IMG/VR virus record: IMGVR_UViG_3300027969_000058
Coordinates: 32,001-96,000 of that record
Length of the DNA: 64,000 nucleotides
Origin: a virus
Direction: 5' to 3' (one strand)
Below the pieces are notes generated by a model that did no database searches, was not told where the DNA came from, and worked only from the letters and a program-made list of their open reading frames with translations. Made by a program: the position numbers and the translations under genes. Below, in pieces: positions 2,056 through 51,866 of this stretch. The stretch's first letter is position 1, and each line of letters begins with the position of its first letter.

Positions 2056-2107
2056 ACTAATAGTTATCTTATTAACTATTCAGTACCTTATTAACTGAAT
2101 TACTGCC

Positions 2108-2133
2108 AAAAAAATAGACCCCGAAGGGTCTAT
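2108..2133 (-). terminator. Rho-independent terminator after tmRNA
   Basis: ATAGACCC-TTCG-GGGTCTAT followed by a T run on the minus strand. Confidence 0.9.
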
Positions 2134-2521
2134 GGTTGTTTATTTTACAAGGTAAGTCCTACCCCGGAGTTGCAGTTTCTTAGGCTGCTAATTCAAAACC
2201 TTCGTTATTGCTTGCGAAAACATTAACGTTGGTTTCAAAATACTCGAATGTATTTGCTGTTGCATTTACTTTGATTTGCTTGATTTAGAGTCATCGCCTA
2301 CTCAGTTGCCGTCTCTAACTATTTGCCCAATCGATTACCAGAGCAGGCCCAACTAAGTAGTCTCGCACCAACTGGTGGATATAGCGAGAATCGACCTCGC
2401 ATTTTATAGATTCGGAATCCATCTGTCCTACTTGGACGATATACCCGACACTACTTAGGTGGACCTGGCGAGATTCGAACTCGCGTCTTGAACACATCCT
2501 TTTTGAAGGGATTACAACTAT
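2134..2521 (-). ncRNA. ssrA: Circularly permuted (two-piece) tmRNA
   Basis: The acceptor piece comes first (T-arm GCGAG-TTCGAAT-CTCGC, then CAGGTCC-A-CC, ending ~2458). After an intervening segment, the coding piece starts GGGCCTG at 2350 and pairs with CAGGTCC including G3.U70. Tag frame 2263-2180 follows TAAAT-GCA and encodes ATANTFEYFETNVNVFASNNEGFELAA-stop. Confidence 0.88.
2373..2446 (-). tRNA. tRNA-Arg(CCG)-like gene nested in the tmRNA intervening segment
   Basis: Cloverleaf: acceptor GGGTATA/TATATCC + ACCA, D stem GTCC/GGAC, anticodon stem ATGGA/TCTAT with loop TTCCGAA, T stem GCGAG/CTCGC with atypical loop GTCGATT. Confidence 0.7.
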
Positions 2522-2527
2522 ACGCTT

Positions 2528-2556
2528 ATTATAGCGCATTGTATTTAGCGTGTCAA
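2528..2556 (-). promoter_or_regulatory. Consensus sigma70 promoter for tmRNA/tRNA (also contains a TAAATA box)
   Basis: TTGACA-17 nt-TATAAT exactly. Confidence 0.9.
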
Positions 2557-12708: not shown

Positions 12709-13389
12709 TTAGCGTATTTCCGGGAAGAGACATTCCTGTACGAACACTGTTACATCTTCTTCGCTAAGGCCTAAGCTAACCATAACTTTAGGTGTGTGCG
12801 GATTTTGCTTTTGATTTTGTGCATAGTAGTTCTGTGCTGCCGATGTATCTACAGCAGTGTTATTAGTTTCGCCTACACATTCTGTATAGTGATTTACTAA
12901 AATACTTGCTAAAGATGCTATCTGCTTTAGTTCGCTTTCATCACTAACGTTTCCGGCTGCTACCATATTTTTACTAAAAATACGCTGAGCCCATTCTGGT
13001 AATGCACGTTGTTTGTTCCATTCGTAACGACTGACTTCATCGCCGAAGTATTCAATCATAGGATGTGCTGTGTCGCCTGCTGGGCTGTAGTCAATAAAAC
13101 AACCGGTAATCTTGTTTTTACCTGCGATTACGTCAAAGCCGAATATCGGAGCAGGATTATGCGTATGTGGGAAAATACAACAATGCATCATCCAAAGACC
13201 TTTAGTGTCACGAGCGTCTACAATATCGATGTGTGCTCGTCTATACAATTCGCCTGAATACACGCGGTTAACCCAACCGGGTTGGTTAAATCGATCCATT
13301 CCGGGCTCATTAACTAATGTGCCCGTTTTCTCAAAAGTCTGTTCGAATTTTTCAGCAATATCTTGCAGTGTTTCCCAAACGTTACTCAT
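12709..13389 (-). CDS. pcyX: Ferredoxin-dependent bilin reductase, PcyX type
   Basis: RAHIDIV, LWMMHCCIFP and PIFGFDV place Asp55, His69 and Asp86, matching the PcyX catalytic set as recalled (PcyA has Glu at the first position); C-terminal Q.YY...Q..NPHT; adjacent to heme oxygenase. Confidence 0.88.
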   Translation of the reverse strand: MSNVWETLQDIAEKFEQTFEKTGTLVNEPGMDRFNQPGWVNRVYSGELYRRAHIDIVDARDTKGLWMMHCCIFPHTHNPAPIFGFDVIAGKNKITGCFIDYSPAGDTAHPMIEYFGDEVSRYEWNKQRALPEWAQRIFSKNMVAAGNVSDESELKQIASLASILVNHYTECVGETNNTAVDTSAAQNYYAQNQKQNPHTPKVMVSLGLSEEDVTVFVQECLFPEIR

Positions 13390-13921
13390 TTCCTAATACT
13401 TTCATTAATTTAATTGCCCATTCAAATGCAACACGGGCTTCGTCGCCAAGGTCGTCTGTAAGCTCTGCACGAATGGCTGCTTTTAAATTATGTGCATCCT
13501 TGAATTCGTAGAACTTACCAGAGCCTGGGCATTTTTTAGCAATGATCTGTCCGCCAAATAAATCGCCCATATGACGGCAGTATAGGTGTGCCTTAACTAA
13601 GTGTTTACGAGAGTCGTCGTAATTTAGTGCTAACAAATACTGGTAGTATTCAATGGTTGCAGGCAGCCATCTAAGTTGATGGTGCGGCCCAACTAATTCT
13701 ATACAGTCTTGATATATCTTATGTGTACGTTCAATGTCTGGTAAGTTTTTTAACATACCTTGACTATTTGCCGCAGTTTCAATGCCGTTGTATACTAATA
13801 CCATTTGCCAAAGATAGTTAGCATACTCTTCTTTAGAAAAGGTTCCGCCAACTAACTTTTTAGCAAATAAAGTTTCTTCTGCTTTTTGATGTAGATCGTG
13901 TGTAATGTCTCGTAAGCTCAT
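13382..13921 (-). CDS. hemO: Heme oxygenase
   Basis: Proximal His in LRDITHDLHQKAE; distal helix HLYCRHMGDLFGGQ. Confidence 0.92.
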   Translation of the reverse strand: MSLRDITHDLHQKAEETLFAKKLVGGTFSKEEYANYLWQMVLVYNGIETAANSQGMLKNLPDIERTHKIYQDCIELVGPHHQLRWLPATIEYYQYLLALNYDDSRKHLVKAHLYCRHMGDLFGGQIIAKKCPGSGKFYEFKDAHNLKAAIRAELTDDLGDEARVAFEWAIKLMKVLGNE

Positions 13922-14220
13922 TCTTCTTCCATTTTAATTTGGAGTGGGAAACCACTTGCTCGGGCAAGCTGGGTAGCTTCGACTGCTTTTACTTCTGCAA
14001 TTTCGAAACTGTAAACTCCAGCAATTCCACTACCAGTACTATGTATCTGTATTGTAATATCTTTAGCTGTTTCTTGAGTGTGCTTAAAAATATCGGTTAA
14101 GATTCCAACTACAAAATCCATAGGAGTAGTATCGTCGTTGATGAGAACTACTTTCCAACGTTTAGGTTCTTGAATCTTTTGTTTGATTTTATCGTCAATT
14201 TGAATTTCAGATGTAGGCAT
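13918..14220 (-). CDS. clpS: ATP-dependent Clp protease adaptor ClpS
   Basis: KVVLINDDTTPMDFVV..L...F, IH..G.GIAGVY..EIAE.K, FPL motifs. Confidence 0.95.
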   Translation of the reverse strand: MPTSEIQIDDKIKQKIQEPKRWKVVLINDDTTPMDFVVGILTDIFKHTQETAKDITIQIHSTGSGIAGVYSFEIAEVKAVEATQLARASGFPLQIKMEEE

Positions 14221-14235
14221 AGTTATACTCTCTTT

Positions 14236-14270
14236 AAAAAGGGAGAAGTTGCCTCCTCCCGTATTATTTA
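14236..14270 (-). terminator. Terminator after hsp20 overlapped by a late TAAATA promoter
   Basis: TAAATA-ATAC-GGGAGGAG-GCAA-CTTCTCCC-TTTTT. Confidence 0.7.
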
Positions 14271-14273
14271 CAT

Positions 14274-14708
14274 TTATTTTACTTCAATTCTTCGAGGCTT
14301 AAGAGCGTCGGGAATTATAAGTGTAAGTTTAATATGAAGGATGCCGTTAGTCAACAATACGTCGCCCACTTCCATATACTGCGGAATAGTAAAGGCTCTT
14401 TCAAAGTTTCTTGCGGCGAGGCCTCGATGTATGTATTGAGCATCACTGTTTTCTATTTCAGGCTTGTAACCCTTAATAATTAACTGATCCTGGTCAACCT
14501 CGACTGATATATCAGGCTTGTCAAATCCTGCAACTGCAATCTCAATTTCGTAGTGTGTATCGTCAAATTTGAGTATATTGAACGGAGGGTAATTGATGTT
14601 GTTACCAATTCCTTTTGATTCGATGTTATTGAAAATACGATCAAATCCGATCAATGCTCTACTTAAATGGGCAAGAGCTGCCGCATCAATAGTTCTTAAT
14701 TGTGTCAT
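14274..14708 (-). CDS. Small heat-shock protein Hsp20 (IbpA-like)
   Basis: NYPPFNI, IEIAVAGF, YIHRGLAARNFERAF, NGIL.I.L, PRRIEV. Confidence 0.95.
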   Translation of the reverse strand: MTQLRTIDAAALAHLSRALIGFDRIFNNIESKGIGNNINYPPFNILKFDDTHYEIEIAVAGFDKPDISVEVDQDQLIIKGYKPEIENSDAQYIHRGLAARNFERAFTIPQYMEVGDVLLTNGILHIKLTLIIPDALKPRRIEVK

Positions 14709-14760
14709 TTTATTTCTCCTTAATAAGCAAGAACTGCGTAGGGCCCCGAAGGCGCCCTAC
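14709..14760 (-). promoter_or_regulatory. ROSE-like RNA thermometer, hsp20 5' UTR
   Basis: TTCTTGCT pairs with AGGAGAA with a bulged G (the U-U-G-C-U ROSE motif opposite the SD), preceded by a GC-rich UUCG hairpin. Confidence 0.75.
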
Positions 14761-14775
14761 TTTAAAAATACTATC

Positions 14776-16695
14776 TTATTTTCTATCTTTAAAGATTTCT
14801 TCAAACTCTGCGTTTGTTTCAGCGGTGGTAGGTGTCTTACCTTCGTTTTTACTATTTTGTAAATCACCACGGACTTTCATGATTGGTTCTGCTATTTTTA
14901 CAAGTTCCGTAGCCGCTTTATTAATTACATCGGTATCTTCACCTGCTAACGCTTCTTCAACTGCTGTTACACCTGCAAGGAATGCATCTCTATCTTCCTG
15001 AGTGATTTTATCTTTAAACTCTTCACTTTCTTCAACGTCTTTAAGATCAGATTTTAGACTGTTAACCAATGCTTCGGCTTGGTTTCGCTCTTCAATAAGA
15101 GTTCGAAGTTTTTTATCTGACTCTGCATTAGCTTCAGCATCTTGTACCATACGCTCGATTTCTTCTGGTGTAAGACCGCTGTTACCTTGGATGGTAATTT
15201 TGTTTTCTTTACCAGTTAGTTGATCTTTAGCAGATACATGCATAATACCATTAGCATCAATATCGAGTGTTACTTCAACTTGTGGCTGGCCTCTACGGCT
15301 TGGCGTTGGGATCCCTTCAAGATTAAACTCGCCTAACAATTTGTTATACTGAGTAAACTCACGTTCTCCCTGGAAACATCTAATAGTAACAGCCTGTTGA
15401 TTATCTTCAGCAGTTGTAAAATTCTGGCTTGTCTTAGTTGGGATAGTGGAGTTTTTAGCAATTAGCTTTGCCATCACGCCACCTTGGGTTTCAATACCAA
15501 GACTCAACGGAGTAACGTCTAATAGCAATACATCATTACGATCGCCTTTTAATACTGCGCCCTGGATTGCCGCGCCTGCCGCCACAGCTTCGTCTGGATT
15601 AACGTCTTTGCGTGGAGCCTTGCCAAATAGCTTTTCAACAGCTTCTTGCACCTTGGGCATACGTGTCATACCACCAACAAGAATAACATCACTGATGTCA
15701 GATGCTTGTAAGCCTGCGTCTGCTAATGCTGTACGGCATGGAGCCAAAGATCTCTGAATCAATGCATCTACTAAACTTTCAAATTTAGATCGGCTAATAG
15801 TAACATTTAAGTGCTTAGGTCCTGTGGCGTCAGCTGTGATATATGGTAAATTCACTGATGTGCTCTGTGTACTTGACAATTCAATCTTGGCTTTTTCAGC
15901 GGCTTCTTTCAAACGCTGTAATGCCAACATATCCTTAGTTAAGTCGATGCCTTGTTCTTTCTTGAACTCATCAACGATGTAATCCATAATACGTTGGTCA
16001 AAGTCTTCGCCGCCAAGGAATGTATCACCATTGGTAGACATTACTTCAATTTGTTTGTCGCCCTCAACTTCTGAAATTTCAATAATAGAAATATCAAATG
16101 TTCCGCCGCCAAGATCATAAACTGCAATCTTGCAGTCTGTTTTTTCTTGTTTGTCAACACCATAGGCAAGTGCGGCCGCTGTTGGCTCGTTGATAATACG
16201 CAGAACGTCAAGTCCTGCAATTTTGCCAGCATCTTTTGTTGCCTGTCTCTGGCTATCATTAAAGTATGCAGGAACAGTAATAACTGCTTCAGTTACTGCA
16301 TAACCAAGATAGTCTTCTGCAGTCTGTTTCATTTTACGTAAAACTTCCGCTGAGATTTGTGGCGGTGCTAATTCTTTATCATTAACCTTAACCCATGCAT
16401 CGCCGTTTTCAGCTTCTATAATAGTGTATGGCATTAGGCCAATATCTTTCTGTACAGCTTCTTCTTTGAATTTACGACCAATTAAACGCTTTGATGCGTA
16501 GATTGTGTTTTTTGGGTTAGTGACTGCTTGTCGTTTTGCTGTTGCACCTACAAGAATTTCCGTATCTGTATATGCAATGATTGAGGGTGTTGTACGTGCG
16601 CCTTCGCTATTTTCAATAACTTTAGTAACGCCATTTTCAATAATGGCTACACACGAATTTGTTGTACCGAGATCGATACCGATGACTTTGCTCAT
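14776..16695 (-). CDS. dnaK: Chaperone DnaK (Hsp70)
   Basis: [40 protein letters not shown]; full length. Confidence 0.98.
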
Positions 16696-16755: not shown

Positions 16756-17340
16756 TTATCTTTTTCCACTTAACGGTGTGATTAATGTACCGTCAAATTT
16801 TGTAGTGCCTTGTAGTGTTTTAAACACATTCTGCACTCCTACTGCTTGATTCCACGCATCTTCAAGAGCATGGTGTTTTAGTACGGGAGGCCTGTTAGGA
16901 TTGATACCAATATCAAACAGTGTACGGGTATCACGAACTTCCCAAAAACTCCACGGAATTGCTTTGCCGATTTTACGAAAAATATGCTCACAAATAACAA
17001 TATCAAATGTTGCACCGTGGCTCCAAACTCGTTTGGCTCCCCAACAGAATTTATAAAGTTGATGCATAGCGTCTACTATATCAACTCTATCAGTTTCTCC
17101 AAATGCTTCATCTTGGGCTTCTTTGCTTTGATTAGCCCACCAAGCAATTGTATCGTCGTTGGTGACTAAGCCTATTTTGTCGCAACTATCTAAATCAACT
17201 CTTGTATAGAACTTTGTACATTTTGGATCATTAACATCATCACCGAACGGATCAAACTTAACAGCGCCAATTGTAAGAATGGCAGCATCTGGGGATGTTG
17301 CCAAAGTTTCCAAGTCAATCATAATATCTGTATTTGCCAT
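16756..17340 (-). CDS. DEDDh 3'-5' exo(ribo)nuclease, Rv2179c-like
   Basis: MIDLETL, WSHGATFD, RDTRT, HHALEDA. Confidence 0.88.
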   Translation of the reverse strand: MANTDIMIDLETLATSPDAAILTIGAVKFDPFGDDVNDPKCTKFYTRVDLDSCDKIGLVTNDDTIAWWANQSKEAQDEAFGETDRVDIVDAMHQLYKFCWGAKRVWSHGATFDIVICEHIFRKIGKAIPWSFWEVRDTRTLFDIGINPNRPPVLKHHALEDAWNQAVGVQNVFKTLQGTTKFDGTLITPLSGKR

Positions 17341-17367
17341 TATATTCTTTCTTTATTAAGAACTAAC

Positions 17368-17396
17368 ATTATAGCATAATACAGATCATATGTCAA
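17368..17396 (-). promoter_or_regulatory. Consensus sigma70 promoter
   Basis: TTGACA-17 nt-TATAAT. Confidence 0.88.
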
Positions 17397-17641
17397 TACA
17401 TTTTCTTAGGTAGTTCTTGTTCTCTGAGCTTTTTAGCCCAACGACTTTTGGCTGCGGCTGCTTTGCGCTTTCGAGCTGTTGTGGGTTTCTCGTAAAACTC
17501 TTTCTTTTGTAAATCCTTGAGTTTATTACTGTCCTCAATTTTATTTTTGAATTTACGTAGGGCACGATTAACATCGTCACCATCTCTAAGAAATACGGTT
17601 GATCCGTATAATCTAATTGCGTTATTGTCCTTCATCTTCAT
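17393..17641 (-). CDS. rpsU: Ribosomal protein bS21
   Basis: ALRKFKNK...KEFYEKPTTARKRK motif. Confidence 0.9.
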   Translation of the reverse strand: MKMKDNNAIRLYGSTVFLRDGDDVNRALRKFKNKIEDSNKLKDLQKKEFYEKPTTARKRKAAAAKSRWAKKLREQELPKKMY

Positions 17642-18053
17642 CCTCTTCTGGTTCTTCTTTGTCTTTGAATGCTTCTAAAATCCAATCAAGATTAAATATC
17701 CTGTTTCTACTAATTAGATTCCAGGGCGTTAGCTCATCATTGGTCATATAGTATGCATTTGGTTGTGCTAATATAAAACTAACAAAATTTTTAGTTATCT
17801 CATCGCAGTTGTCAATATCTATAATAACAAAGTCCGAGTTATTGGCTGCATTAAGCATCCAGGCAATATCTACTTCATCTGTGTCATATATGTATACATT
17901 TATATCATCAGGGCAAGCACTAAGTAAAGTCTGAAATTGCATCTTTACTTTAGTGCTGGGTTTTACTAACAGATATCCGGGGTTCAAATTAAACAGCGTA
18001 TCTGGTGGAGTGATAAGATTAATTTTTCCTAAGTTCATAAATTCTTTGTGCAA
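17622..18053 (-). CDS. Hypothetical protein
   Basis: ORF overlapping both neighbours; start may be MNLGK. Confidence 0.7.
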   Translation of the reverse strand: MHKEFMNLGKINLITPPDTLFNLNPGYLLVKPSTKVKMQFQTLLSACPDDINVYIYDTDEVDIAWMLNAANNSDFVIIDIDNCDEITKNFVSFILAQPNAYYMTNDELTPWNLISRNRIFNLDWILEAFKDKEEPEEDEDEGQ

Positions 18054-18228
18054 AATAGTCTAATTGATCAATACTGTAGATGCTGAACTTAGGACCCTTT
18101 TCTTGAATTCGTTTTACAAATTCAGCTAACTCAGGCTCTTGTGTCTCATCAACTACAATATTTTTAAATTCGTGTTCGCTGTACTCTTTATATAGTCTAT
18201 CTGAAGAACGCATTTGATCTTTTTTCAT
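18019..18228 (-). CDS. Hypothetical ORF; probably the -1 frameshift extension of 18279..19448
   Basis: Frame is open upstream to the A9G run at 18336-18345; no SD before its ATG. Confidence 0.6.
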   Translation of the reverse strand: MKKDQMRSSDRLYKEYSEHEFKNIVVDETQEPELAEFVKRIQEKGPKFSIYSIDQLDYFAQRIYELRKN

Positions 18229-18278
18229 TATGCGTTGCCAAAGTGTTGTTTCACCTTGTTCAGCATTTTGAACATAGG

Positions 18279-19448
18279 TTAGTTCTTCTTCTCTTTGAGC
18301 TTCTGCTGCCCCTCTTCCTTGATCATGTAAGTTGTCTTTTTTTTTAGATCTTCTGTAAGTTCAGGAAGAATTTGATAAGTTGATGAGTTCACTGTGAGAT
18401 CCACAGTGTCAACTGTAGTAGGTTCAGTTTCTTCAACCTTGGGGGTAGCAGGAACAAATTCTACTACGGCAGTGACAGCGATATTCGGTGATTGAATTTC
18501 AATCGGTGTGTCAAGTTTTGCAACTATTGGATCTAAATTTTCAAAATGAGCAAATGGTTGATTCAAGTATGGATGTTTATCTAATACAGATTCGTCTGGT
18601 AAAACAGTTTCTTTGATCTGCTCAACCTGAGCGTCAGTTAACGGTCCATCGTCTGGCTCGTAAGTTGGCACTGGTACTACTTTTAGTTTTTCTTCTTTTA
18701 ACCAGCCAAACGTCATTTGAGCTGCCAATAGCATGATAACTGCCAAAGGATCAAATACAACCACAATTAAAATAATTACCCATGTAACGGCTTTTTCAAG
18801 AAGATTAGCATCTGGGTTGTCACCGTAGACAAAAGCCGCGATGTATTTGATTGGTCCTACTTCGGCTTCTACTTTACGTACCTCAGCGGCAATAGGCGCC
18901 CTCTCTTCAGATAGTTGACTAATAGTTTTCTGTTCGGCAGTGATCTCAGATTGGAGACGAGTACGTTCTTTTTGCTGTCCTCTTCGAATCGAAACTGCTT
19001 TGTCGGCACCCTTTTCATCTTGGCTTCGGCCCATGACTTGGTCCACAGCCTCATCCATCTGTTTAAGCGCCTTACGGTTCGCATCTATATTATCCTTTGC
19101 TGTCTTAATCTTTTCGTCATAGATGGCAATCTTACTTGTTACGTCGCCGCCGACTAAAGTTTGATCGGTATGTGCCTTACTTAAGAATCCAAAGATACCC
19201 ATGCTGGTTATAAACATTAGTACAATGATTGCAACCAACATGTAACTGCGTATAAAGTTAGGAGCTCGTTCCCAGTTAGCTTTAAGCCATGAAGCGCATA
19301 CTAATTTTGCTATTTCTAAACTACCTCCCATAATATAGATAGGAATAGTTGCGGCTGCAAAAATAGCGGCCAAGCCAATAACACTATAATAGATGGCCAC
19401 TCCGGAGATGACAAGGCCAGTAAGGAGTAATAAAGACGCCAGTATCAT
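18279..19448 (-). CDS. Multi-TM coiled-coil membrane protein
   Basis: Three N-terminal TMs, long coiled coil, further TM, acidic Pro-rich tail. Confidence 0.85.
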   Translation of the reverse strand: MILASLLLLTGLVISGVAIYYSVIGLAAIFAAATIPIYIMGGSLEIAKLVCASWLKANWERAPNFIRSYMLVAIIVLMFITSMGIFGFLSKAHTDQTLVGGDVTSKIAIYDEKIKTAKDNIDANRKALKQMDEAVDQVMGRSQDEKGADKAVSIRRGQQKERTRLQSEITAEQKTISQLSEERAPIAAEVRKVEAEVGPIKYIAAFVYGDNPDANLLEKAVTWVIILIVVVFDPLAVIMLLAAQMTFGWLKEEKLKVVPVPTYEPDDGPLTDAQVEQIKETVLPDESVLDKHPYLNQPFAHFENLDPIVAKLDTPIEIQSPNIAVTAVVEFVPATPKVEETEPTTVDTVDLTVNSSTYQILPELTEDLKKKTTYMIKEEGQQKLKEKKN

Positions 19449-19451
19449 TAA

Positions 19452-20075
19452 TTAAACAGTAGAAACTATTTCCGTTCCGTCTAAAATTTGAACAGAAACA
19501 TCATCATATACATCGCCATCGGTATCAGGCCGTTGAATTGTAATTGATGACAGTACGCCTGCTGTTCCTACAGTGTCGTATGTATTCCATTTACGTGTAT
19601 AGCCTGAGGTGCCGCCACGTTGAATACCTTGTGCTACAAGATAACGTATTGCTTTTGCTGTAGTGTCGATTGTAACAGCGGCACCTGTAGTAGGTGCAAA
19701 TGTTGTAGCAACTTTTTGAACTGCACCTAATACAAAATCATCTCTGTCATATTTTACAGTAAATGCAATGTTAGTAGGAACATTGTTAGCATCTGTTGCG
19801 CCGGCGCTGGTTACTTCTACATCAATAATTTGAGCATCACTATGCTTAGATAACTCTTCAATAATTGCTTGCCAGCGCATATTGCCACGACTTAATCGTA
19901 GTGAGTTTACTTCAGATGAAGGTAATGTAGTGTAGCTATCCCAATTGTAGGGGTTTACTGCGCCATTAGCAGGTGCTGCCGCTGTCCATGTAGCAGTGCC
20001 ACCGGTCATTGTAATTACCACACGATAAAAATCTGGTGATAGTTGGTTTGTGTCTTGTTGAAATCCTGAGGCCAT
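19452..20075 (-). CDS. Hypothetical, probable virion structural protein
   Basis: Thr/Ala/Gly-rich beta composition; TAAATA box and SD upstream. Confidence 0.7.
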   Translation of the reverse strand: MASGFQQDTNQLSPDFYRVVITMTGGTATWTAAAPANGAVNPYNWDSYTTLPSSEVNSLRLSRGNMRWQAIIEELSKHSDAQIIDVEVTSAGATDANNVPTNIAFTVKYDRDDFVLGAVQKVATTFAPTTGAAVTIDTTAKAIRYLVAQGIQRGGTSGYTRKWNTYDTVGTAGVLSSITIQRPDTDGDVYDDVSVQILDGTEIVSTV

Positions 20076-20096
20076 TTTTTAGCTTCCTATGTTATT

Positions 20097-20513
20097 CTAA
20101 TATTTATCAACAAAAGTCCAAGTCCTTCTATTAGTATTAAGACATGCGGTGTCTTGATAGCTATTAGCTTTGTCATTTATACGTATAAAACTATAAATTC
20201 TTCTACATACTGTGCCGCTGGCTGGCCACGTATAAACAATTCTTACTTGTCCGTCTGCGTCGTCAATCATACTGCGCCATGTGACAGTTTCACCGTTGTC
20301 AAGATTATTTAGCGCATGATTAACGGCTTGTTTATGATTATCTAAATCTTGTTTAGATAATGATGTACCAAACCATTTGTTCATTACCCATGCAATGCCT
20401 ACAGTTTGTGATTCAAACGCAGGACTTTGTGCATATACAGGATTAAGGACTAACAGTAGGCACAATTTCCCAAGTACCGTCCCATTTTTTACACGCATAA
20501 GTACGTCTTTCAA
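20097..20513 (-). CDS. 17-kDa surface antigen-like (RT0821/Lpp0805-type) protein
   Basis: AL....NGETVTW...G.V......CR.......ACL....W pattern. Confidence 0.65.
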   Translation of the reverse strand: MKDVLMRVKNGTVLGKLCLLLVLNPVYAQSPAFESQTVGIAWVMNKWFGTSLSKQDLDNHKQAVNHALNNLDNGETVTWRSMIDDADGQVRIVYTWPASGTVCRRIYSFIRINDKANSYQDTACLNTNRRTWTFVDKY

Positions 20514-20760
20514 CTGTTTGTCCCCTTAAATTAGTAAGGTATCTAAATTCTCCGCAATCTGACGAGATTCCAGTTCGTGCCATAACTATTCGATCAACTG
20601 GGTCGTCGGAGCAGATAACAGTAGTTTTACTTGAAACATCACTGCCGTTATCTACTTCTACTATCTTCTTTGTATGACAAAATTGTCCTGCTACTTTTTT
20701 AGGTGATGAGCTACAGCCTGCGGCTGTAATTATCACTGCAAGAACAATTAGCCATTTCAT
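20443..20760 (-). CDS. Lipoprotein
   Basis: Lipobox AAGC; ends in ACKKWDGTWEIV. Confidence 0.75.
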   Translation of the reverse strand: MKWLIVLAVIITAAGCSSSPKKVAGQFCHTKKIVEVDNGSDVSSKTTVICSDDPVDRIVMARTGISSDCGEFRYLTNLRGQTVERRTYACKKWDGTWEIVPTVSP

Positions 20761-21230
20761 TGCTTTCTCGCTTTAGATTCTGCAATAAGTTGATCAAATG
20801 TAGATTTAGGCATCTCAAGTCTAACAAATGTATAATGTTTCCCGCCCATGGTAAAATGTGCAGTTTCAGTACGCAGATGTTCGCGGATAGTAGTATCTTT
20901 TACCACATACGAAATTCGAGTTCGTGTGGACTTTTTATCGTTTACAAAGTTAATCTCAGTTTCACTATTAACTTCACTGTTAATACGCTTGGCAAAGTTG
21001 TTCATCGCAATAGCGTACATCTGTTCTTCGGCAGCCTGTGCATAAACACTTTCTCCACCGCCGCAGGCATTGGCAAATTCTTTCTTCCACCAAAACCAAC
21101 CTTTAACTGAACTCTGCTGGCATTCTGTATACCAATCTGGCATTGCATAGGCTTTGCGTTCTTCTACGGTCTTCATGCCTGAGCAGGCAGTTAGTGCGGC
21201 TATGATAGGAATTAAAATAAACTTTTTCAT
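20757..21230 (-). CDS. Lipoprotein (LPP20-like)
   Basis: Lipobox LTAC, PDWY motif. Confidence 0.75.
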   Translation of the reverse strand: MKKFILIPIIAALTACSGMKTVEERKAYAMPDWYTECQQSSVKGWFWWKKEFANACGGGESVYAQAAEEQMYAIAMNNFAKRINSEVNSETEINFVNDKKSTRTRISYVVKDTTIREHLRTETAHFTMGGKHYTFVRLEMPKSTFDQLIAESKARKQ

Positions 21231-21355
21231 TTTGCCATCTCCTGTGAGTGTGTTTTAATAGTGTCGACTCCTCGGTCAAGCATACGAGCAACGCCCGAGA
21301 ATCCTACGGTAGCAAGTATTAGTCCAAAGACTGCGCCAATAACAAAGTTTTTCAT
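21227..21355 (-). CDS. Small membrane protein (42 aa)
   Basis: MKNFVIGAVFGLILATVGFSGVARMLDRGVDTIK...; ATGA overlap with the next gene. Confidence 0.6.
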   Translation of the reverse strand: MKNFVIGAVFGLILATVGFSGVARMLDRGVDTIKTHSQEMAK

Positions 21356-21401
21356 ATTTGCCTTTCTGTGTGTGTGAAATTAAAAAGCCTCTGTAGCATG
21401 T

Positions 21402-21430
21402 ATTATACTATCAGAGGCATTGTTAGTCAA
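21402..21430 (-). promoter_or_regulatory. sigma70 promoter with inverted repeat around the -10
   Basis: TTGACT-17 nt-TATAAT; GCCTCTG/CAGAGGC inverted repeat at 21387-21418. Confidence 0.8.
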
Positions 21431-21440
21431 TGATATTTGG

Positions 21441-21743
21441 TTACTTAAAGAATATCAAAACCATCAATACGCTTTGGATGATAAATCCTACGCCAATTGT
21501 GATGACATTGAGCATATCCTTTTGGACTGCGGCTTTGACAAACATCAAAGTCAATCCTGTCCACATTAACAATATAATGTCTGCGCTGGGCATCTTATCA
21601 GTAAGCCCTGCCATCACAGCCAACAAACTTGGAATGGTTGCTGAATGGATTACAATTACTGCTAACCAACCCAAAGTTTCGGCAGATACATGGGCGACTT
21701 TTTCTCGCACAAATGTTCTAACTGTTTCAACATTAAAATCCAT
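21441..21743 (-). CDS. Small three-TM membrane protein
   Basis: Three hydrophobic segments. Confidence 0.75.
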   Translation of the reverse strand: MDFNVETVRTFVREKVAHVSAETLGWLAVIVIHSATIPSLLAVMAGLTDKMPSADIILLMWTGLTLMFVKAAVQKDMLNVITIGVGFIIQSVLMVLIFFK

Positions 21744-21745
21744 GA

Positions 21746-22285
21746 TTATTCCTTATAAAAAATATGACGACCAATTTTACCAATTACTGGCTTACCCCAA
21801 CCTGGATTAACGTAGTCGGCATGATAGAACATGGCCTTCTTCATTGTGTCCAAACGGAATCCTTCTAATAGAACTTTTTTAGCAACTTCATAACTTTCAT
21901 TATATGCTGCCGTGTTCTTAATAATTGCTTTGCCACCATTTAGGCAGTACCAGCTAAATTGGCAAACTACTTTTTCCATAAACACATTCTTTTGGTAAAC
22001 AACGCCGCAGACATCGCTGGGAAATTTTCCAGATGCTGCTCGATTCATTGTTACCTGTGCTACTGCTACTTTACCTTCGAAGGACTCATATCCTGCTTCG
22101 TGGTAAATGTTTTTGGCTAAACAATCTAATTGTCTTTCTCTATCTTTGGCTGTTATAATTTCTGTCGAAGCCATAGCTTCTAAATTTTCCAGAGACGAAA
22201 ATTTCCTGGCTGTCACGGTTTGTATCAAACCTGCTATTAGAATGAAGCTAATAACAAAGATACTGAAACGTATCATTTTTTCCAT
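21746..22285 (-). CDS. Cell wall hydrolase, SleB/Hydrolase_2 family
   Basis: CLAKNIYHEA, VAVAQVTMNR, CQFSW, FYHADYVNPGW, IGRHIFY. Confidence 0.92.
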   Translation of the reverse strand: MEKMIRFSIFVISFILIAGLIQTVTARKFSSLENLEAMASTEIITAKDRERQLDCLAKNIYHEAGYESFEGKVAVAQVTMNRAASGKFPSDVCGVVYQKNVFMEKVVCQFSWYCLNGGKAIIKNTAAYNESYEVAKKVLLEGFRLDTMKKAMFYHADYVNPGWGKPVIGKIGRHIFYKE

Positions 22286-22327
22286 AGTTTTCTCCTTAAG
22301 TAAGTAGTTATCTCGAATAGATTCGAG

Positions 22328-22723
22328 TTATCTACGCATTTTGCTAATATCAATAGCTTCTTCGTCGCTAAACACCGGTACTGCATTGCTTTTATGCATT
22401 GTTGCAATACCTTTAACTTTAGTTCCGGTATAGACCTTAGCTGGTGCTAATGTAGCAACACCATTATCCTGCCCTAAACTTTTAATATGGGTTGTTGTTC
22501 GGTTAGCAGGAATACTTAGCGAGTAATTCCCTGTTAAGGGTTCGGCGCACAATGCTCGCTTGCGCTTCTTTTCTTCAGCTTCTACTCCCCATCGTTTTTG
22601 AAGCTCTTTCCAATCTTTATCCAATTGCTCGCTTTTCCTTTTTGCTTCTGCGCTGGCAAATTTTACTTTACCTTTCTTCTTGCCTGTGGTACTGAGCCAC
22701 GGGCCTTCTAAATGCATTGTCAT
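22328..22723 (-). CDS. Conserved-type phage hypothetical protein
   Basis: Ends YTG..VKGIATMHKSNAVPVF; own sigma70 promoter. Confidence 0.75.
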   Translation of the reverse strand: MTMHLEGPWLSTTGKKKGKVKFASAEAKRKSEQLDKDWKELQKRWGVEAEEKKRKRALCAEPLTGNYSLSIPANRTTTHIKSLGQDNGVATLAPAKVYTGTKVKGIATMHKSNAVPVFSDEEAIDISKMRR

Positions 22724-22753
22724 ATTTTCACCAAAAGTTAAAACACAAGCTAT

Positions 22754-22782
22754 AGTATATAGCCTTGTTCGACTTCTGTCAA
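22754..22782 (-). promoter_or_regulatory. sigma70 promoter
   Basis: TTGACA-17 nt-TATACT. Confidence 0.8.
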
Positions 22783-23103
22783 CTAAAACGAGTTAGCTAC
22801 CATTTCGAGCAATTCTTCATGCTCGAAATATGCATATTCTGGATTAAATTCATAAATGCCATCTTCTATGCTTTGCCAGTTTTCTATGCCTAAGATTTCA
22901 AAAATCTCATGCTTGCTTAACGGTTCGTCTCGCATATGGCTAACCCAGGCAGCTGTCATCACAGCACAGGCAAATACAACACGATCGCTGTAGACATCAT
23001 TGGCTTCACACCATTCAACTGTGCGTCGAAGATAATACTCTATATCTTCAATTCTGTGTTCTAATTGAGAAATCCAAAGTTTAGTTTGATTTCTTGACCA
23101 CAT
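22783..23103 (-). CDS. Hypothetical protein
   Basis: Start reassigned to MWSRN directly after the iscA stop. Confidence 0.65.
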   Translation of the reverse strand: MWSRNQTKLWISQLEHRIEDIEYYLRRTVEWCEANDVYSDRVVFACAVMTAAWVSHMRDEPLSKHEIFEILGIENWQSIEDGIYEFNPEYAYFEHEELLEMVANSF

Positions 23104-23104
23104 A

Positions 23105-23431
23105 TTATATCCTAAAAGATTCGCCGCACCCGCAACGGTCACGCTCATTTGGGTTTGAAAAGTCGAATCCTTCGTTGAGTCCTTCACGGACCCAATCCAT
23201 GGTTATTCCAGTTAAGTAAACTAAACTTTTAGCATCTATTAATACTACAAAGTCTTTTTGAGCAAAGTTAGTAACACCTTCTTCATATTTGTACTCGTCA
23301 ACATATTCTAAGGTATAGGCTAAGCCGCTACAGCCAGTAGTTCTTACACCGACACGGATGCCTACGCCTTTGCCACGGCGCTCTAACGTTTGCTTAATCT
23401 TTTTATACGCTGTGTCGGTTACGGTAATCAT
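23105..23431 (-). CDS. iscA: Fe-S cluster A-type carrier IscA
   Basis: GCSGLAY and CGCGESF. Confidence 0.95.
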   Translation of the reverse strand: MITVTDTAYKKIKQTLERRGKGVGIRVGVRTTGCSGLAYTLEYVDEYKYEEGVTNFAQKDFVVLIDAKSLVYLTGITMDWVREGLNEGFDFSNPNERDRCGCGESFRI

Positions 23432-23789
23432 TTACGGCTGCTTTGATAGCATCTTCTGCTAAAATTGAACAATGTATCTTAACCGGCGGCAGGGCTAATT
23501 CTTCGGCAATTTCGGAGTTTTTAATTTCTCCGGCTTTATCGATGTGCATTCCTTTGACCCACTCTGTAATGAGGCTCGAACTCGCGATAGCCGATCCGCA
23601 GCCATACGTTTTAAATTTCGCATCTGTAATAATACCTGTATCATGATCCACCTTTATCTGTAGCTTCATTACGTCGCCACAAGCAGGTGCGCCAACCATA
23701 CCAGTACCAATATCAGGATCACCCTTGTCAAAAGATCCGACATTACGAGGGTTTTCGTAGTGGTCTATCACCTTATTGCTGTATGCCAT
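23403..23789 (-). CDS. iscU: Fe-S scaffold IscU
   Basis: HYENPRNVG, GAPACGD, GCGSAIASSS, LPPVKIHCS. Confidence 0.97.
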   Translation of the reverse strand: MAYSNKVIDHYENPRNVGSFDKGDPDIGTGMVGAPACGDVMKLQIKVDHDTGIITDAKFKTYGCGSAIASSSLITEWVKGMHIDKAGEIKNSEIAEELALPPVKIHCSILAEDAIKAAVNDYRNRHSV

Positions 23790-23843
23790 TTTTGTTACTC
23801 ACTAAATATAAAGTATTTATAACCCCGATTGCATATATTCTTA

Positions 23844-24449
23844 TTAAACGTAAATAACGTAGTCTGGATATTTTTGTATACTATCTGTTAATACAGATGC
23901 TAAAGATTCTTTAATCAATCCTTGATACATAATTAATTGTTTGCTGTGGCCTGGATTAAAGTCTGTAGCATGTTTTACTCTTAGATCATGATACCACCAA
24001 GTATTAGTCTCTTCCGGTAATTTTAGATAGTGCTTATTACTATTACTATCTTCATACCACCAAGTTTGCGTTGGATTAGTATCAATTAGTATACTTCTTA
24101 TTGAATTGAATTCAGTGCTCGCTGCAAAATCATGATGAGCACCGACCGTATTAACACTTTGCAACACTCGAACTACATGAACTTCCATGGGAAGTTTATC
24201 TAAGTTATCAAATAACAACGGAAATAATTCAGGACAGTTCACATTGTTACATGTGTACGGCATGATATCACCTGGATCTATACCTGTTTTAACGTAGATA
24301 TCGAATCCTTTCCAATAAACTTGTCTTGCGTTTTTTGTCCGTGATGACTTGGTCACAAATTTTTTATTTTGATCCCATACTTTATTCCATACTTCCCAGT
24401 CTTTAGGCTGGACTTTGGGGAAAATTAATGGAACTGATACTGGAATCAT
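23844..24449 (-). CDS. Hypothetical protein, possible HxD...H double-stranded beta-helix fold
   Basis: GAHHD...KHAT spacing is suggestive only. Confidence 0.55.
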   Translation of the reverse strand: MIPVSVPLIFPKVQPKDWEVWNKVWDQNKKFVTKSSRTKNARQVYWKGFDIYVKTGIDPGDIMPYTCNNVNCPELFPLLFDNLDKLPMEVHVVRVLQSVNTVGAHHDFAASTEFNSIRSILIDTNPTQTWWYEDSNSNKHYLKLPEETNTWWYHDLRVKHATDFNPGHSKQLIMYQGLIKESLASVLTDSIQKYPDYVIYV

Positions 24450-24482
24450 ATTCTACCCCTGTATTAGTAGGGGCCCTTTGAT

Positions 24483-24683
24483 TTATTTCTTGTCTGCAGG
24501 CTTACGTTCGTTTTTAACTGCGGTAACATCGTTACGAGTTTCTTTGCACAACTTAGCCAAATCTTGGCAATGTTTACGAACACGGGTGCCGGCAGCGCCA
24601 ACTTCCTTGTCATAGAACTTTTCGAAGTCTGCCTCCATGGCCTCTACGATTTTTGTGAACTCTTGATATTTGTTTGCTGACAT
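24483..24683 (-). CDS. Histone H1-like Hc1 family protein
   Basis: EKFYDKEVGAAGTRVRK....LAKL.KE.R motif. Confidence 0.7.
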   Translation of the reverse strand: MSANKYQEFTKIVEAMEADFEKFYDKEVGAAGTRVRKHCQDLAKLCKETRNDVTAVKNERKPADKK

Positions 24684-24710
24684 AATAGTCTCCTTTTGTT
24701 ATATTAGTTA

Positions 24711-24902
24711 TTACCAGTGATGTAATGTGTTTGCAATAATGAAACAACATGTTATCACATGTATGATCACCCAGAACGTCTTTAAAAACAACGCTATACG
24801 TGCTTCTCTTAAAGAAAGTATAGGTATATCCGGACGATCTTCGTCTGTTTGGCCCATTAAATGACCTGTTGCTCTTGCCCAAACTTTCTCTAAACTATTC
24901 AT
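24711..24902 (-). CDS. Small membrane protein
   Basis: ATGA overlap with the upstream gene; C-terminal TM. Confidence 0.65.
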   Translation of the reverse strand: MNSLEKVWARATGHLMGQTDEDRPDIPILSLREARIALFLKTFWVIIHVITCCFIIANTLHHW

Positions 24903-25396
24903 AGTATAGGAAATTGTCCGTCAAGCCAGGCTTTGCAGTCTGACCAATTTTTATAAATGTGTGATTTTCCACCAGCTTCGATCCATTCTCGACAATTAGA
25001 GTGTCTATCGTCAATTAGGATATCTTCAGGACTTTTGCAGTATCGCCACTTGTCGTGACTAAATGGTCCAAAGAACACTGGAATACCGGGAAAGTGAGAA
25101 TTTGCCCACCACACTTTATCCTGTGCCGCAAATGGCATTGAGTAATCATGTGGTAATGCTGTTAAGAAATATAGTCCACATCCTGTCTTAGCATGATGTG
25201 TTCTACACCAATTAACTAATTCAGTAGCGCCGGCCATCAACGGCAAGTTACGATAGAAACGCATGTCGTCTTTAACTTTATCCCATTGTTCTTGTGGAAT
25301 ACGATCACCATCTTTGTTCCATCGTAGTTTAAGAACTTGTTGTGCGTGGGCATGCCAATCAGCAACAACATCGTCCATGTCTAAATAAATGTTCAT
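24899..25396 (-). CDS. HAD-family 5'(3')-deoxyribonucleotidase
   Basis: YLDMDDVVAD motif I; LIDDR motif. Confidence 0.85.
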   Translation of the reverse strand: MNIYLDMDDVVADWHAHAQQVLKLRWNKDGDRIPQEQWDKVKDDMRFYRNLPLMAGATELVNWCRTHHAKTGCGLYFLTALPHDYSMPFAAQDKVWWANSHFPGIPVFFGPFSHDKWRYCKSPEDILIDDRHSNCREWIEAGGKSHIYKNWSDCKAWLDGQFPIL

Positions 25397-25402
25397 GTAA
25401 AC

Positions 25403-25431
25403 ATTATGCTTTCATCTGATAAAAAGATCAA
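25403..25431 (-). promoter_or_regulatory. sigma70 promoter, probably leaderless transcript
   Basis: TTGATC-17 nt-CATAAT, 6 nt before ATG, no SD. Confidence 0.6.
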
Positions 25432-25432
25432 G

Positions 25433-25738
25433 TTAATTGGCAAACACGTCCGGTGAACCAGCAGTAATTGCACCGCTGTCAGTTGAGTCGCCTACTCGTG
25501 CAACTGCAATGTTACCAACAAACACACTGCCTGAGCCAGCGTTAATTGCGGCAGAATGTGCAACACATCGTCTTCCACTTTTAATAGTATGAGCTGCTGT
25601 AGGATTTCCTACACATTCAACTGGAATACCATTGGCAAAGACATTAGCGCCTGCACCTGTTGGTCCTGTAACCGTAGTAGAACCGTCACAGCTATGTCCT
25701 GTAGTTGTTGGGTCTCCGTCTCTGGCTATTGCTGGCAT
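25433..25738 (-). CDS. PAAR-repeat spike tip protein (T4 gp5.4-like)
   Basis: PAIARDGD..TGH, VFANG, VARVGD, GS.DVF. Confidence 0.92.
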   Translation of the reverse strand: MPAIARDGDPTTTGHSCDGSTTVTGPTGAGANVFANGIPVECVGNPTAAHTIKSGRRCVAHSAAINAGSGSVFVGNIAVARVGDSTDSGAITAGSPDVFAN

Positions 25739-25743
25739 ATTGA

Positions 25744-26058
25744 TTAGGTAATTATACTGCCTGCTGATACTGGTTGAATACCAGTTGTTTGAAACAAGTA
25801 CTGTTCAGCAATTTCTTTTACGGTTGTTCCACTTAGCATCACGGCTGCTTTATTTATAGTATAGTCAGCTTCCGGAGTAACTGTCATCATCACTGGTGCC
25901 ATGGCCGGACCGTTTTTAGTCATAGCCAGCATAACCGGCCTTGCTATAGTGAAACTGGTCATGTCTTCTTTGACATATTTTCCAATGAGTTCATCGCCGG
26001 TGATTATTTTTAAACTTACGATATCACCCGCATCAAATTTTGATTTTTCTAATAGCAT
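25744..26058 (-). CDS. Hypothetical protein (Sm-like beta barrel possible)
   Basis: IVSLKIITGDELIGK pattern; start reassigned to MLLEK. Confidence 0.7.
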   Translation of the reverse strand: MLLEKSKFDAGDIVSLKIITGDELIGKYVKEDMTSFTIARPVMLAMTKNGPAMAPVMMTVTPEADYTINKAAVMLSGTTVKEIAEQYLFQTTGIQPVSAGSIIT

Positions 26059-26059
26059 A

Positions 26060-26302
26060 TTAACCTTTAAGTGTGTTAAAAAATTCTTCGTCTTTATCAG
26101 CAAGGCCTTGAAAGCCTCCGGGCAATAGCACGCCGTCTTTAAAAATTTGTGGAACTGAGCGTAGTCCTTGATCTACTAAAAACTCTCGGGCACCAGGTTC
26201 ATCTTCCATTTTAATTACAGTAAATGGAATTTCTTTGCTTTCTAATAGTGCTTTTGTTCTGTCGCAAAATGGACAGTTATTTTTTGAATATACAGTTATC
26301 AT
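26060..26302 (-). CDS. Glutaredoxin
   Basis: CPFC, SVPQIF, GGF. Confidence 0.95.
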   Translation of the reverse strand: MITVYSKNNCPFCDRTKALLESKEIPFTVIKMEDEPGAREFLVDQGLRSVPQIFKDGVLLPGGFQGLADKDEEFFNTLKG

Positions 26303-26319
26303 ATGATCTCCTTGTTAGA

Positions 26320-39834: not shown

Positions 39835-40583
39835 ATTTTATTCAACACGTTACGGAACCATTCTTGTGGTCCTTCTTCGGCAACTTTATCTTGCTTTTTT
39901 GGACTCCAATTAGGATCCTCTTCGGCTCGGGCAAGTAATGCCTGTGCTTGCTCTTCAGGCAATGATTTCAATATAGCTTCTACACTACCAAGACTCTTTG
40001 ATGTTGCCTTTGGACTAATAAGTCGCTGTGCTATTTCATCAAGGTCATCGCTGACAAATTCGCCTTTTTTACCTTCAGCGGTTCTACTGAACAAGCCTTG
40101 CCAAGCTGACCACATATAACCTTTTTGTTTGGCCAAGATGGCCATGACCAACTGTTTGTTTACACCTTTATATGGGCTTTTATCTGGAATATCATGTGTG
40201 TGAAATTTACTGATTCTGTCTGCCTTAGGAGTAATCATTATATCTACTTGGTGGGCTTCGGTACCAACTGGCACACGAACATGTACGTTGATACCAGTTT
40301 GTGCAGTTTGTAAACCCTGAGCTGAAATAAAATCACTTAACGCTCTACGTGCAGATTTGGCATCTTTTGATTTAAAAAAATTAACTACTTGTTCTTCGTC
40401 AGCAATAACATCCATGTCACCACTTTTCTTGCCAGCTTTTGGAGTAGCTGCTGATCCAACTGGGATCACAGAAAGGCCTGCGCCTGCTACTGCTCGTTGT
40501 ACTTTATTTAAAATCTCTGGCACCAATGCGTGATCAAATGGTGTAACATCCGGAAATACATTTCCGCCTTCAAGCAGTATCAT
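39831..40583 (-). CDS. Pol-beta superfamily nucleotidyltransferase
   Basis: VGSAA....KSGDMDV and QVDIM. Confidence 0.72.
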   Translation of the reverse strand: MILLEGGNVFPDVTPFDHALVPEILNKVQRAVAGAGLSVIPVGSAATPKAGKKSGDMDVIADEEQVVNFFKSKDAKSARRALSDFISAQGLQTAQTGINVHVRVPVGTEAHQVDIMITPKADRISKFHTHDIPDKSPYKGVNKQLVMAILAKQKGYMWSAWQGLFSRTAEGKKGEFVSDDLDEIAQRLISPKATSKSLGSVEAILKSLPEEQAQALLARAEEDPNWSPKKQDKVAEEGPQEWFRNVLNKI

Positions 40584-51851: not shown

Positions 51852-51866
51852 AGCAGCCTACCTCCT

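Follow-up and report, generated by a model that had tools for sequence, protein, structure and literature searches.

A conserved A9G slip site predicted to give a phage membrane protein two alternative C-termini

The window analyzed here, a 64,000-nucleotide (nt) stretch covering positions 32,001 to 96,000 of IMG/VR virus record IMGVR_UViG_3300027969_000058, carries on its minus strand a membrane protein gene with a run of nine A residues followed by a G (A9G) shortly before its stop codon. Standard decoding would yield a form of 389 amino acids (aa) with a conserved Lys-rich tail of 18 residues, and slipping back by one base on the A run would yield a 476-aa form with a Y.QN.EQ motif and a four-helix domain. 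The two proteins would share residues 1-371, comprising the membrane core and an acidic linker, and would differ in a C-terminus that is probably cytoplasmic. Because the site and its phase are conserved, both downstream frames are selected, the second frame has no independent start, and natural in-frame fusions exist, we conclude that programmed recoding of some kind is very probably real and selected. The conserved site, phase, and pair of frames in relatives likewise support the first-pass annotation, which had proposed programmed recoding in a gene other than a tail chaperone. Our favored account, in which slippage by RNA polymerase is the main route to the long form, has, taken as a whole, about an even chance of being correct.

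The slip site and its conservation

The gene and its two readings comprise the following features:

18279..19448, minus strand: 0-frame open reading frame (ORF) from the ORF list, short isoform of the membrane protein, 389 aa plus stop
18678..19448, minus strand: conserved core, residues 1-257 (AlphaFold 2 (AF2) model and invariant columns)
18336..18345, minus strand: slip site A9G (CTA AAA AAA AAG), tandem in-phase heptamers A_AAA_AAA and A_AAA_AAG, also a 9-nt homopolymer
18279..18335, minus strand: 0-frame Lys-rich tail, 18 codons plus stop, overlapping the -1 linker (window sequence TTYMIKEEGQQKLKEKKN)
18019..18336, minus strand: -1 frame extension, 105 codons plus stop, leading to the predicted 476-aa long isoform (frame reading and relatives)
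18229..18276, minus strand: invariant -1 frame motif Y.QN.EQ....W.RI, starting 2-11 nt past the 0-frame stop
18022..18207, minus strand: predicted small four-helix C-terminal domain, reachable only via the -1 shift (AF2)

The minus strand reads GAT CTA AAA AAA AAG ACA, with the A run at 18345..18337 and the G at 18336. The slip site lies 18 codons ahead of the 0-frame stop of ORF 19448..18279, of which AAG is a 0-frame codon, so that A_AAA_AAG, and A_AAA_AAA one codon upstream, are in phase for a -1 shift. Reading in the -1 frame from G18336 meets no stop for 105 codons, as far as 18022, and thereby covers ORF 18228..18019; no Shine-Dalgarno (SD) sequence was found ahead of the ATG at 18228 in the window. 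With 371 residues common to both products, the long one would have 371 + 105 = 476 aa versus 389 aa for the short one. The first-pass annotation had described the sequence CTA AAA AAA AAG ACA at 18336-18345, the end of the 0 frame 18 residues past it, the open -1 frame leading into an ORF (18019..18228) that lacks an SD, and the two product lengths; reading of the frames on the minus strand confirmed all of these.

The number of A9G motifs in the window (two versus 0.75 expected, with at least two present in 17 of 100 shuffles) is not significant alone, and A/T runs of at least eight (two observed versus 4.6 +/- 2.3 expected) are neither depleted nor enriched significantly. The significance of the slip site comes from its relatives, as more than 100 that were independently assembled retain the exact site, its phase, and the two frames downstream of it.

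Relatives were collected in three samples, via the membrane core, via a DNA pattern in viral and metagenome contigs, and via the extension domain; the last sample (52 non-redundant loci) is blind to the slip site. Among 119 non-redundant contexts, the run was A9G in 105 and A8G, in the same phase, in 12. The remaining two, an A10G (L182) and a phase-shifted A9 (L043), are in-frame fusions. The 52 loci picked by the extension only gave a similar distribution, with 47 A9G, two A8G, three in-frame A10G, and no phase-shifted run. The slip site is present in about one third of the nearest 80 loci. In the 119 relatives the run, which lies in a linker that is hypervariable elsewhere, never contains fewer than eight A's. 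The wobble position of the codon just ahead supplies the ninth A, which is retained with any of six amino acids encoded there (TCA 92, CTA 5, CCA 5, GCA 2, and CAA, GTA, and TTA one each, versus TCT 11 and TTC 1). An in-phase A_AAA_AAG is present in 117 of the 119, including all 12 A8 variants, which fall in at least six lineages.

Run length was identical within all 296 pairs of sequences with at least 97% identity, 65 of which were non-identical pairs. Mis-assembly of the homopolymer, which the first-pass annotation had named as something that would overturn its proposal, is excluded by this result and by the 105 A9G runs among 119 relatives. Stops in the -1 frame of close relatives, the other such outcome, were not seen either: the frame is open and conserved down to ca. 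40% identity.

A different source of two isoforms would be phase variation at the DNA level, with replication slippage toggling the run between A9 and A10 and each isoform coming from a different subpopulation. The in-frame A10G variants are what such a process could leave behind: they make up three of the 52 extension-chosen loci (L329=L330, L182=L368, and L395), L329=L330 was assembled identically from two samples, and long, in-frame forms account for ca. 5% of database homologues. However, not one of the 296 near-identical pairs differs in run length, and the A9 relatives nearest to the A10 lineages are only 82-84% identical to them, which points to separate stable lineages rather than rapid switching. 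In addition, the extension is under purifying selection inside A9 lineages. We therefore consider phase variation very improbable.

Coding constraint on the two C-termini

The 0-frame tail has the family consensus KKKTYMiKD..G.iq.K.Re*. Among the 81 relatives whose tails have the most common length, the stretch from the slip site to the 0-frame stop had mean column entropies of 0.72, 0.73, and 1.20 at 0-frame codon positions 1, 2, and 3, respectively, indicating that the 0-frame tail is the constrained reading there and that the -1 frame crosses it as a linker. Starting at the Y of Y.QN.EQ, entropy in the same relatives tracks the -1 frame (0.94/0.81/1.32). The closest relative, L323 (90% nt identity), behaves in the same way: both of its differences from the window in the overlap are 0-frame synonymous, leaving the tail identical, and past the overlap seven of 11 differences are at -1-frame third positions. 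The substitution patterns thus indicate that both tails are under selection and that the selected frame switches exactly at the 0-frame stop. The first-pass annotation had suggested checking whether the 0-frame tail and the -1 YVQN.EQ segment are both conserved in homologues; the alignments of relatives and the L323 pair show that they are. The overlap is a clean case of dual coding, in which the 0-frame peptide is constrained and the -1 reading passes through it as a linker.

The distance from the 0-frame stop to the Y codon of the motif is always 2-11 nt in the relatives, and an alignment of 55 extensions revealed the invariant residues Y21, Q23, N24, E26, Q27, and W33. Of the 119 relatives, 94 have a long extension of 103-116 aa, and in the other 25 it ends shortly past the motif. 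Its C-terminal part has the consensus ..LYKEY..F..PEL..FV..GPKF..Y..L.YFA.RIYELRKN and is modelled by AF2 as four helices, with a predicted local distance difference test score of 78-90 over residues 41-105 of the extension. The domain had no match in Pfam, PHROG, or NCBIfam, comparison of the model with the PDB gave no fold match (Foldseek E>5, best VIA Z 4.8), and tblastn with the extension gave no match among isolated phages.

Parts of the extension occur in frame elsewhere in the family. Long database proteins run continuously in frame through ..KKKELHDQ..YVQN..; L016, L028, and L048 have the C-terminus Y.QNAEQ..W.RI in frame without an A run; and in L045, L046, and L063 the helical domain is fused in frame with neither an A run nor a Y.QN motif. 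The C-termini of the family thus appear, from these arrangements, to be modular. A third large group of the family ends in ..GEYDPDLLSDAEREQIE.. and has no A run.

These data bear on whether any recoding needs to be invoked, the alternatives being a sequencing error in the homopolymer, a pseudogene in decay, or two genes that are translated independently. It is true that A9 runs are error-prone in sequencing, and that the downstream ORF in the window happens to start with an ATG at 18228. However, run length and phase are the same in more than 100 independent assemblies, and the 0-frame tail is under purifying selection that gives way to the other frame exactly at the stop of the tail. Ahead of the invariant motif, 116 of 119 relatives lack any ATG, GTG, or TTG in the -1 frame, and Met is absent between the motif and the helical domain in 81 of 94 long extensions. 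Since start codons are missing and other lineages carry parts of the extension in frame, we conclude that the extension is not a separate gene. An absence of recoding is already contradicted by these findings, and we give it next to no credence.

Level of the slippage

In the favored account, RNA polymerase would add a non-templated A on the A9 run, and the resulting A10 mRNA would then be read normally. Lys-tRNAs slipping by -1 on the tandem heptamers would yield the same protein (..S/L-K-K-K-D..) and probably contribute too. Polymerase slippage is favored because the run has at least eight A's, the wobble ninth A is kept, and stimulators were not found. A run of nine A/T has been reported to be efficient for slippage by bacterial RNA polymerase, for example in Thermus dnaX (PMC5009743), and in tssM, which encodes an inner-membrane protein, transcriptional slippage on an A11 run produces two length variants, both of them required (PMC4256274).

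RNA stimulators, which at frameshift sites of the dnaX/IS3 type include a hairpin or pseudoknot 5-9 nt downstream, were looked for comparatively. RNAalifold analysis of 30 diverse sequences (-30 to +100) predicted 0 pairs, and folding z over 94 sequences had a mean of 0.08 downstream and -0.08 upstream (pseudoknots not modelled explicitly). An SD-like motif within 22 nt upstream was absent from 77 of the 94 sequences. The conserved upstream sequence GA.GA.TCA has codon periodicity, which indicates that it encodes Glu/Asp-Glu/Asp-Ser. A local hairpin that encloses the slip site in the window (z -2.1) was considered as a stimulator and rejected, as relatives do not share it. The earlier impression that there is no clear stimulatory hairpin or upstream SD thus held when it was extended to the 30 and 94 sequences.

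The high shiftiness of A_AAA_AAG has been tied to the reading of AAG by a single tRNA-Lys(UUU) (PMC5009743). In the virus record, genes for tRNA-Lys(UUU) and tRNA-Lys(CUU) stand side by side at 28841-28992, a pair that bears on how prone AAG is to shift during infection. As far as the phage-encoded set is concerned, tRNA-Lys(CUU) should blunt the shiftiness of the heptamer, which favors polymerase slippage. Four other in-phase A_AAA_AAG heptamers, with six A's only, lie inside ORFs of the record and have short -1 frames, so the bare heptamer is tolerated in ordinary genes of this phage. The two A9 sites, in turn, are the only A/T runs of at least eight in the 114.7 kb, and only they precede long -1 ORFs. 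Finally, the in-frame A10G lineages and L043 retain the run, and their Lys-rich tail frame is intact, so that under polymerase slippage both forms would still be possible in them.

Six-A heptamers were seen on the minus strand at window positions 39900 and 32381, in ORFs of 250 and 647 aa, respectively; in both cases the -1 frame closes within 1-2 codons.

The other A9G site in the window lies in a different gene:

33497-33506, minus strand: second A9G slip site (gene region 33168-34411; hairpin 33465-33488)

A 305-aa gene, with a weak PHROG match to a virion structural protein, ends in TCA AAA AAA AAG TAA at 33506..33497, and its -1 frame is open for 109 more codons. Motif, stop, and -1 frame are kept in six relatives, down to 42% identity, one of which has A10. 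A 10-bp hairpin (33488..33465) begins 8 nt downstream of the slip site, with compensatory changes in four of its pairs, and in L322 (42% identical) a stem of unrelated sequence stands at the same place. The second site therefore looks, from this comparison, like a ribosomal -1 frameshift of the dnaX type. The first-pass annotation had spoken of a device reused in this phage; the conserved second site bears this out, and the phage apparently runs the device at different settings at the two sites.

A purely or mainly ribosomal -1 frameshift at the membrane gene, acting on the tandem heptamers at a low, set efficiency with no dedicated stimulators, is the alternative to be weighed most carefully. 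It draws on the near-universal in-phase heptamer, A8 variants included, on A_AAA_AAG being the most shift-prone heptamer in bacteria (PMC5009743), on the ninth A creating a second in-phase heptamer with the same product, and on the same motif (TCA/CTA AAA AAA AAG) being followed at 33506..33497 by an 8-nt spacer and the 10-bp hairpin with its four compensatory pairs. It has to contend with the lack of a conserved hairpin, pseudoknot, or SD-like element at the membrane gene, with the tRNA-Lys(CUU) that the phage supplies, and with the in-phase A6G heptamers that are tolerated within other genes. Natural ribosomal sites usually combine a heptamer with stimulators, and runs of A9 or more without stimulators belong to the transcriptional class (PMC5009743). 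Moreover, in-frame A10 lineages would lose the Lys-rich form if only the ribosome slipped, yet its frame stays open in them. We regard a ribosomal mechanism as a serious possibility that falls somewhat short of probable.

Several points tell against polymerase slippage as the principal route. The compared sequences are related, so that the counts given above are not numbers of independent events. The in-phase A_AAA_AAG extends to the A8 lineages, where the polymerase would be expected to slip less. Dual coding and a requirement for the heptamer explain the conserved G and first AAA codon equally well; the G is uninformative because no other base would encode Lys in the 0 frame and Asp/Glu in the -1 frame without lengthening the run. 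The tandem heptamers account for the ninth A as well. At the second A9G site the covarying hairpin is a ribosomal signature, and the phage evidently uses ribosomal slippage there. Sequence alone cannot separate slippage by polymerase from slippage by the ribosome.

A bolder version of polymerase slippage, which we consider rather unlikely, would make the A run an evolvable, bidirectional rheostat for RNA polymerase slippage, with A8, A9, and A10 lineages all producing both isoforms irrespective of the frame encoded in the genome. Run length and phase would set the isoform ratio, a rapidly terminated third product would also be made, and the phage tRNA-Lys pair, together with ribosomal protein bS21, which is encoded near the membrane gene, could tune any ribosomal contribution during infection. 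If this were true, no other programmed transcriptional slippage site known in DNA viruses would be as widely conserved. For the separation of transcriptional from ribosomal slippage, the A8, A9, A10, in-frame, and run-free forms make up a natural series, and the second site in the same genome bears a hairpin.

The protein family, known systems, and gene neighborhood

The core of the membrane protein consists of three N-terminal transmembrane helices, a helical-hairpin coiled coil of ca. 110 residues, and a fourth transmembrane helix. In the AF2 model of the 389-aa protein, helices span residues 2-58, 64-94, 98-141, 145-208, and 216-257; helices 2-58, 64-94, and 216-257 surround the helical hairpin 98-208, and the C-terminal region beyond is disordered. 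By the positive-inside rule, both termini would be cytoplasmic and the coiled coil periplasmic. Database homologues number more than 8000, on contigs of up to 383 kb, and every relative at 91-99% identity is 389 aa long. Isolated jumbo and T4-like phages, among them Pelagibacter phage Mosig, XacN1, Xoo-sp13, RsoM2USA, and SCTP-2, have the N-terminal membrane core only, annotated as hypothetical throughout and without the split.

Function searches gave little. A Pfam scan of the 389-aa protein returned only sub-threshold, weak matches to DUF4407 and tetraspanins. The DUF4407 match covered residues 103-243 only and scored below the gathering threshold (18.6 versus 31.3 bits, E=0.0012); it is a resemblance of architecture, not family membership. 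No match was obtained in PHROGs, only a weak coiled-coil match in NCBIfam, and only viral hypothetical clusters in the ESM Atlas; a Foldseek search with the 389-aa model matched nothing beyond generic coiled coils, with E values of 0.04 or higher. Gene callers give a protein of 380-410 aa followed by an orphan ORF or nothing, and thereby miss the long isoform, the motif, and the domain. We infer a minority role for the long form as a subunit that bears an adaptor: it would carry a docking motif and domain on the cytoplasmic side and be combined with the short form in a fixed ratio, much as tau with gamma or GT with G.

Most known cases of conserved recoding in tailed phages are in tail chaperone genes, with a few in capsid genes. 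The gene described here resembles the tail chaperone pair G/GT in being a conserved case of phage recoding in which overlapping frames would give mostly a short form and, less often, a form extended at the C-terminus. It differs in encoding a membrane protein with a coiled coil, in its slip motif, and in having no stimulators. The absence of a PHROG match and the presence of four transmembrane helices and a coiled coil show that it is not itself a tail assembly chaperone gene. Chaperone genes of the G/GT type directly precede the tape measure gene; the neighbors here are hypothetical genes, bS21, and HSP70, with no tail module.

Among cellular systems, Thermus thermophilus dnaX (PMC5009743) is similar in having a run of nine A/T within the gene, no RNA stimulator, and products with a shared N-terminus and different C-termini, the tau/gamma ratio being set by slippage. 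The present gene, however, encodes an integral membrane protein of a phage rather than a clamp-loader subunit, its shifted product would be the longer one, its unshifted tail is itself a conserved peptide, and its slippage is a prediction from nucleotide sequence. The tssM genes (tssM1 of Citrobacter rodentium and tssM3 of Yersinia pseudotuberculosis; PMC4256274) likewise encode an inner-membrane protein and have a poly-A run shortly before a premature stop, with short and long variants both needed at a set ratio; an in-frame tssM relative in Yersinia keeps the run, as the A10 and L043 lineages do here. The proteins are unrelated, and the tssM run is A11 and found in two genes only, whereas a large phage family has kept A9G. 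Escherichia coli dnaX and IS3/IS911 share with our gene the A_AAA_AAG heptamer in the correct phase and a -1 shift that leads to an alternative C-terminus. They have six A's only and depend on two stimulators, an SD-like element upstream and a hairpin downstream, that were not found at the membrane gene; the second site (33506..33497) does resemble them.

A literature search found no description of recoding in the membrane gene or of its family. The mechanism is of known kinds; what is new, as far as we have found, is the gene family, the extent to which the site is conserved, and the selection on the 0-frame tail. To the known cases of conserved phage recoding, the site would add a membrane protein family that is very large and comes from uncultured aquatic phages.

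The source virus is a giant aquatic phage: the IMG/VR record has 114,735 bp and is rated 33% complete, which implies a genome of ca. 350 kb. The window encodes HSP70, HSP20, ribonucleotide reductase, bS21, heme oxygenase, bilin reductase, and ORFs of 2956 and 2260 aa, and an array of at least 34 tRNA genes lies upstream of it, outside window coordinates, at ca. 17151-29000 of the virus record. Features located in the window are as follows:

17393-17641, minus strand: ribosomal protein bS21 (Pfam PF01165, E=2.5e-14), ca. 400 nt downstream of the recoded gene
16756-17340: Rv2179c-like 3'-5' exoribonuclease, adjoining the bS21 gene
14776-16695, minus strand: HSP70/DnaK, full-length
14274-14708, minus strand: HSP20
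13382-13921, minus strand: heme oxygenase
12709-13389, minus strand: ferredoxin-dependent bilin reductase
2089-2549, minus strand: predicted permuted (two-piece) transfer-messenger RNA (tmRNA) (ARAGORN; tag peptide ending ..GFELAA)

The genes from bilin reductase to HSP70 form an auxiliary block at 12709-16695 on the minus strand. A tRNA-Arg(CCG) was called at 2373-2446, within the span of the predicted permuted tmRNA. The giant ORFs of 2956 and 2260 aa are adjacent, at 42981-58649 on the minus strand. Upstream of the recoded membrane gene, two small overlapping ORFs occupy 20097-20760 on the minus strand; the N-terminus of one is lipobox-like (..ITAAGCSS) and that of the other signal-peptide-like, and the two may be envelope proteins.

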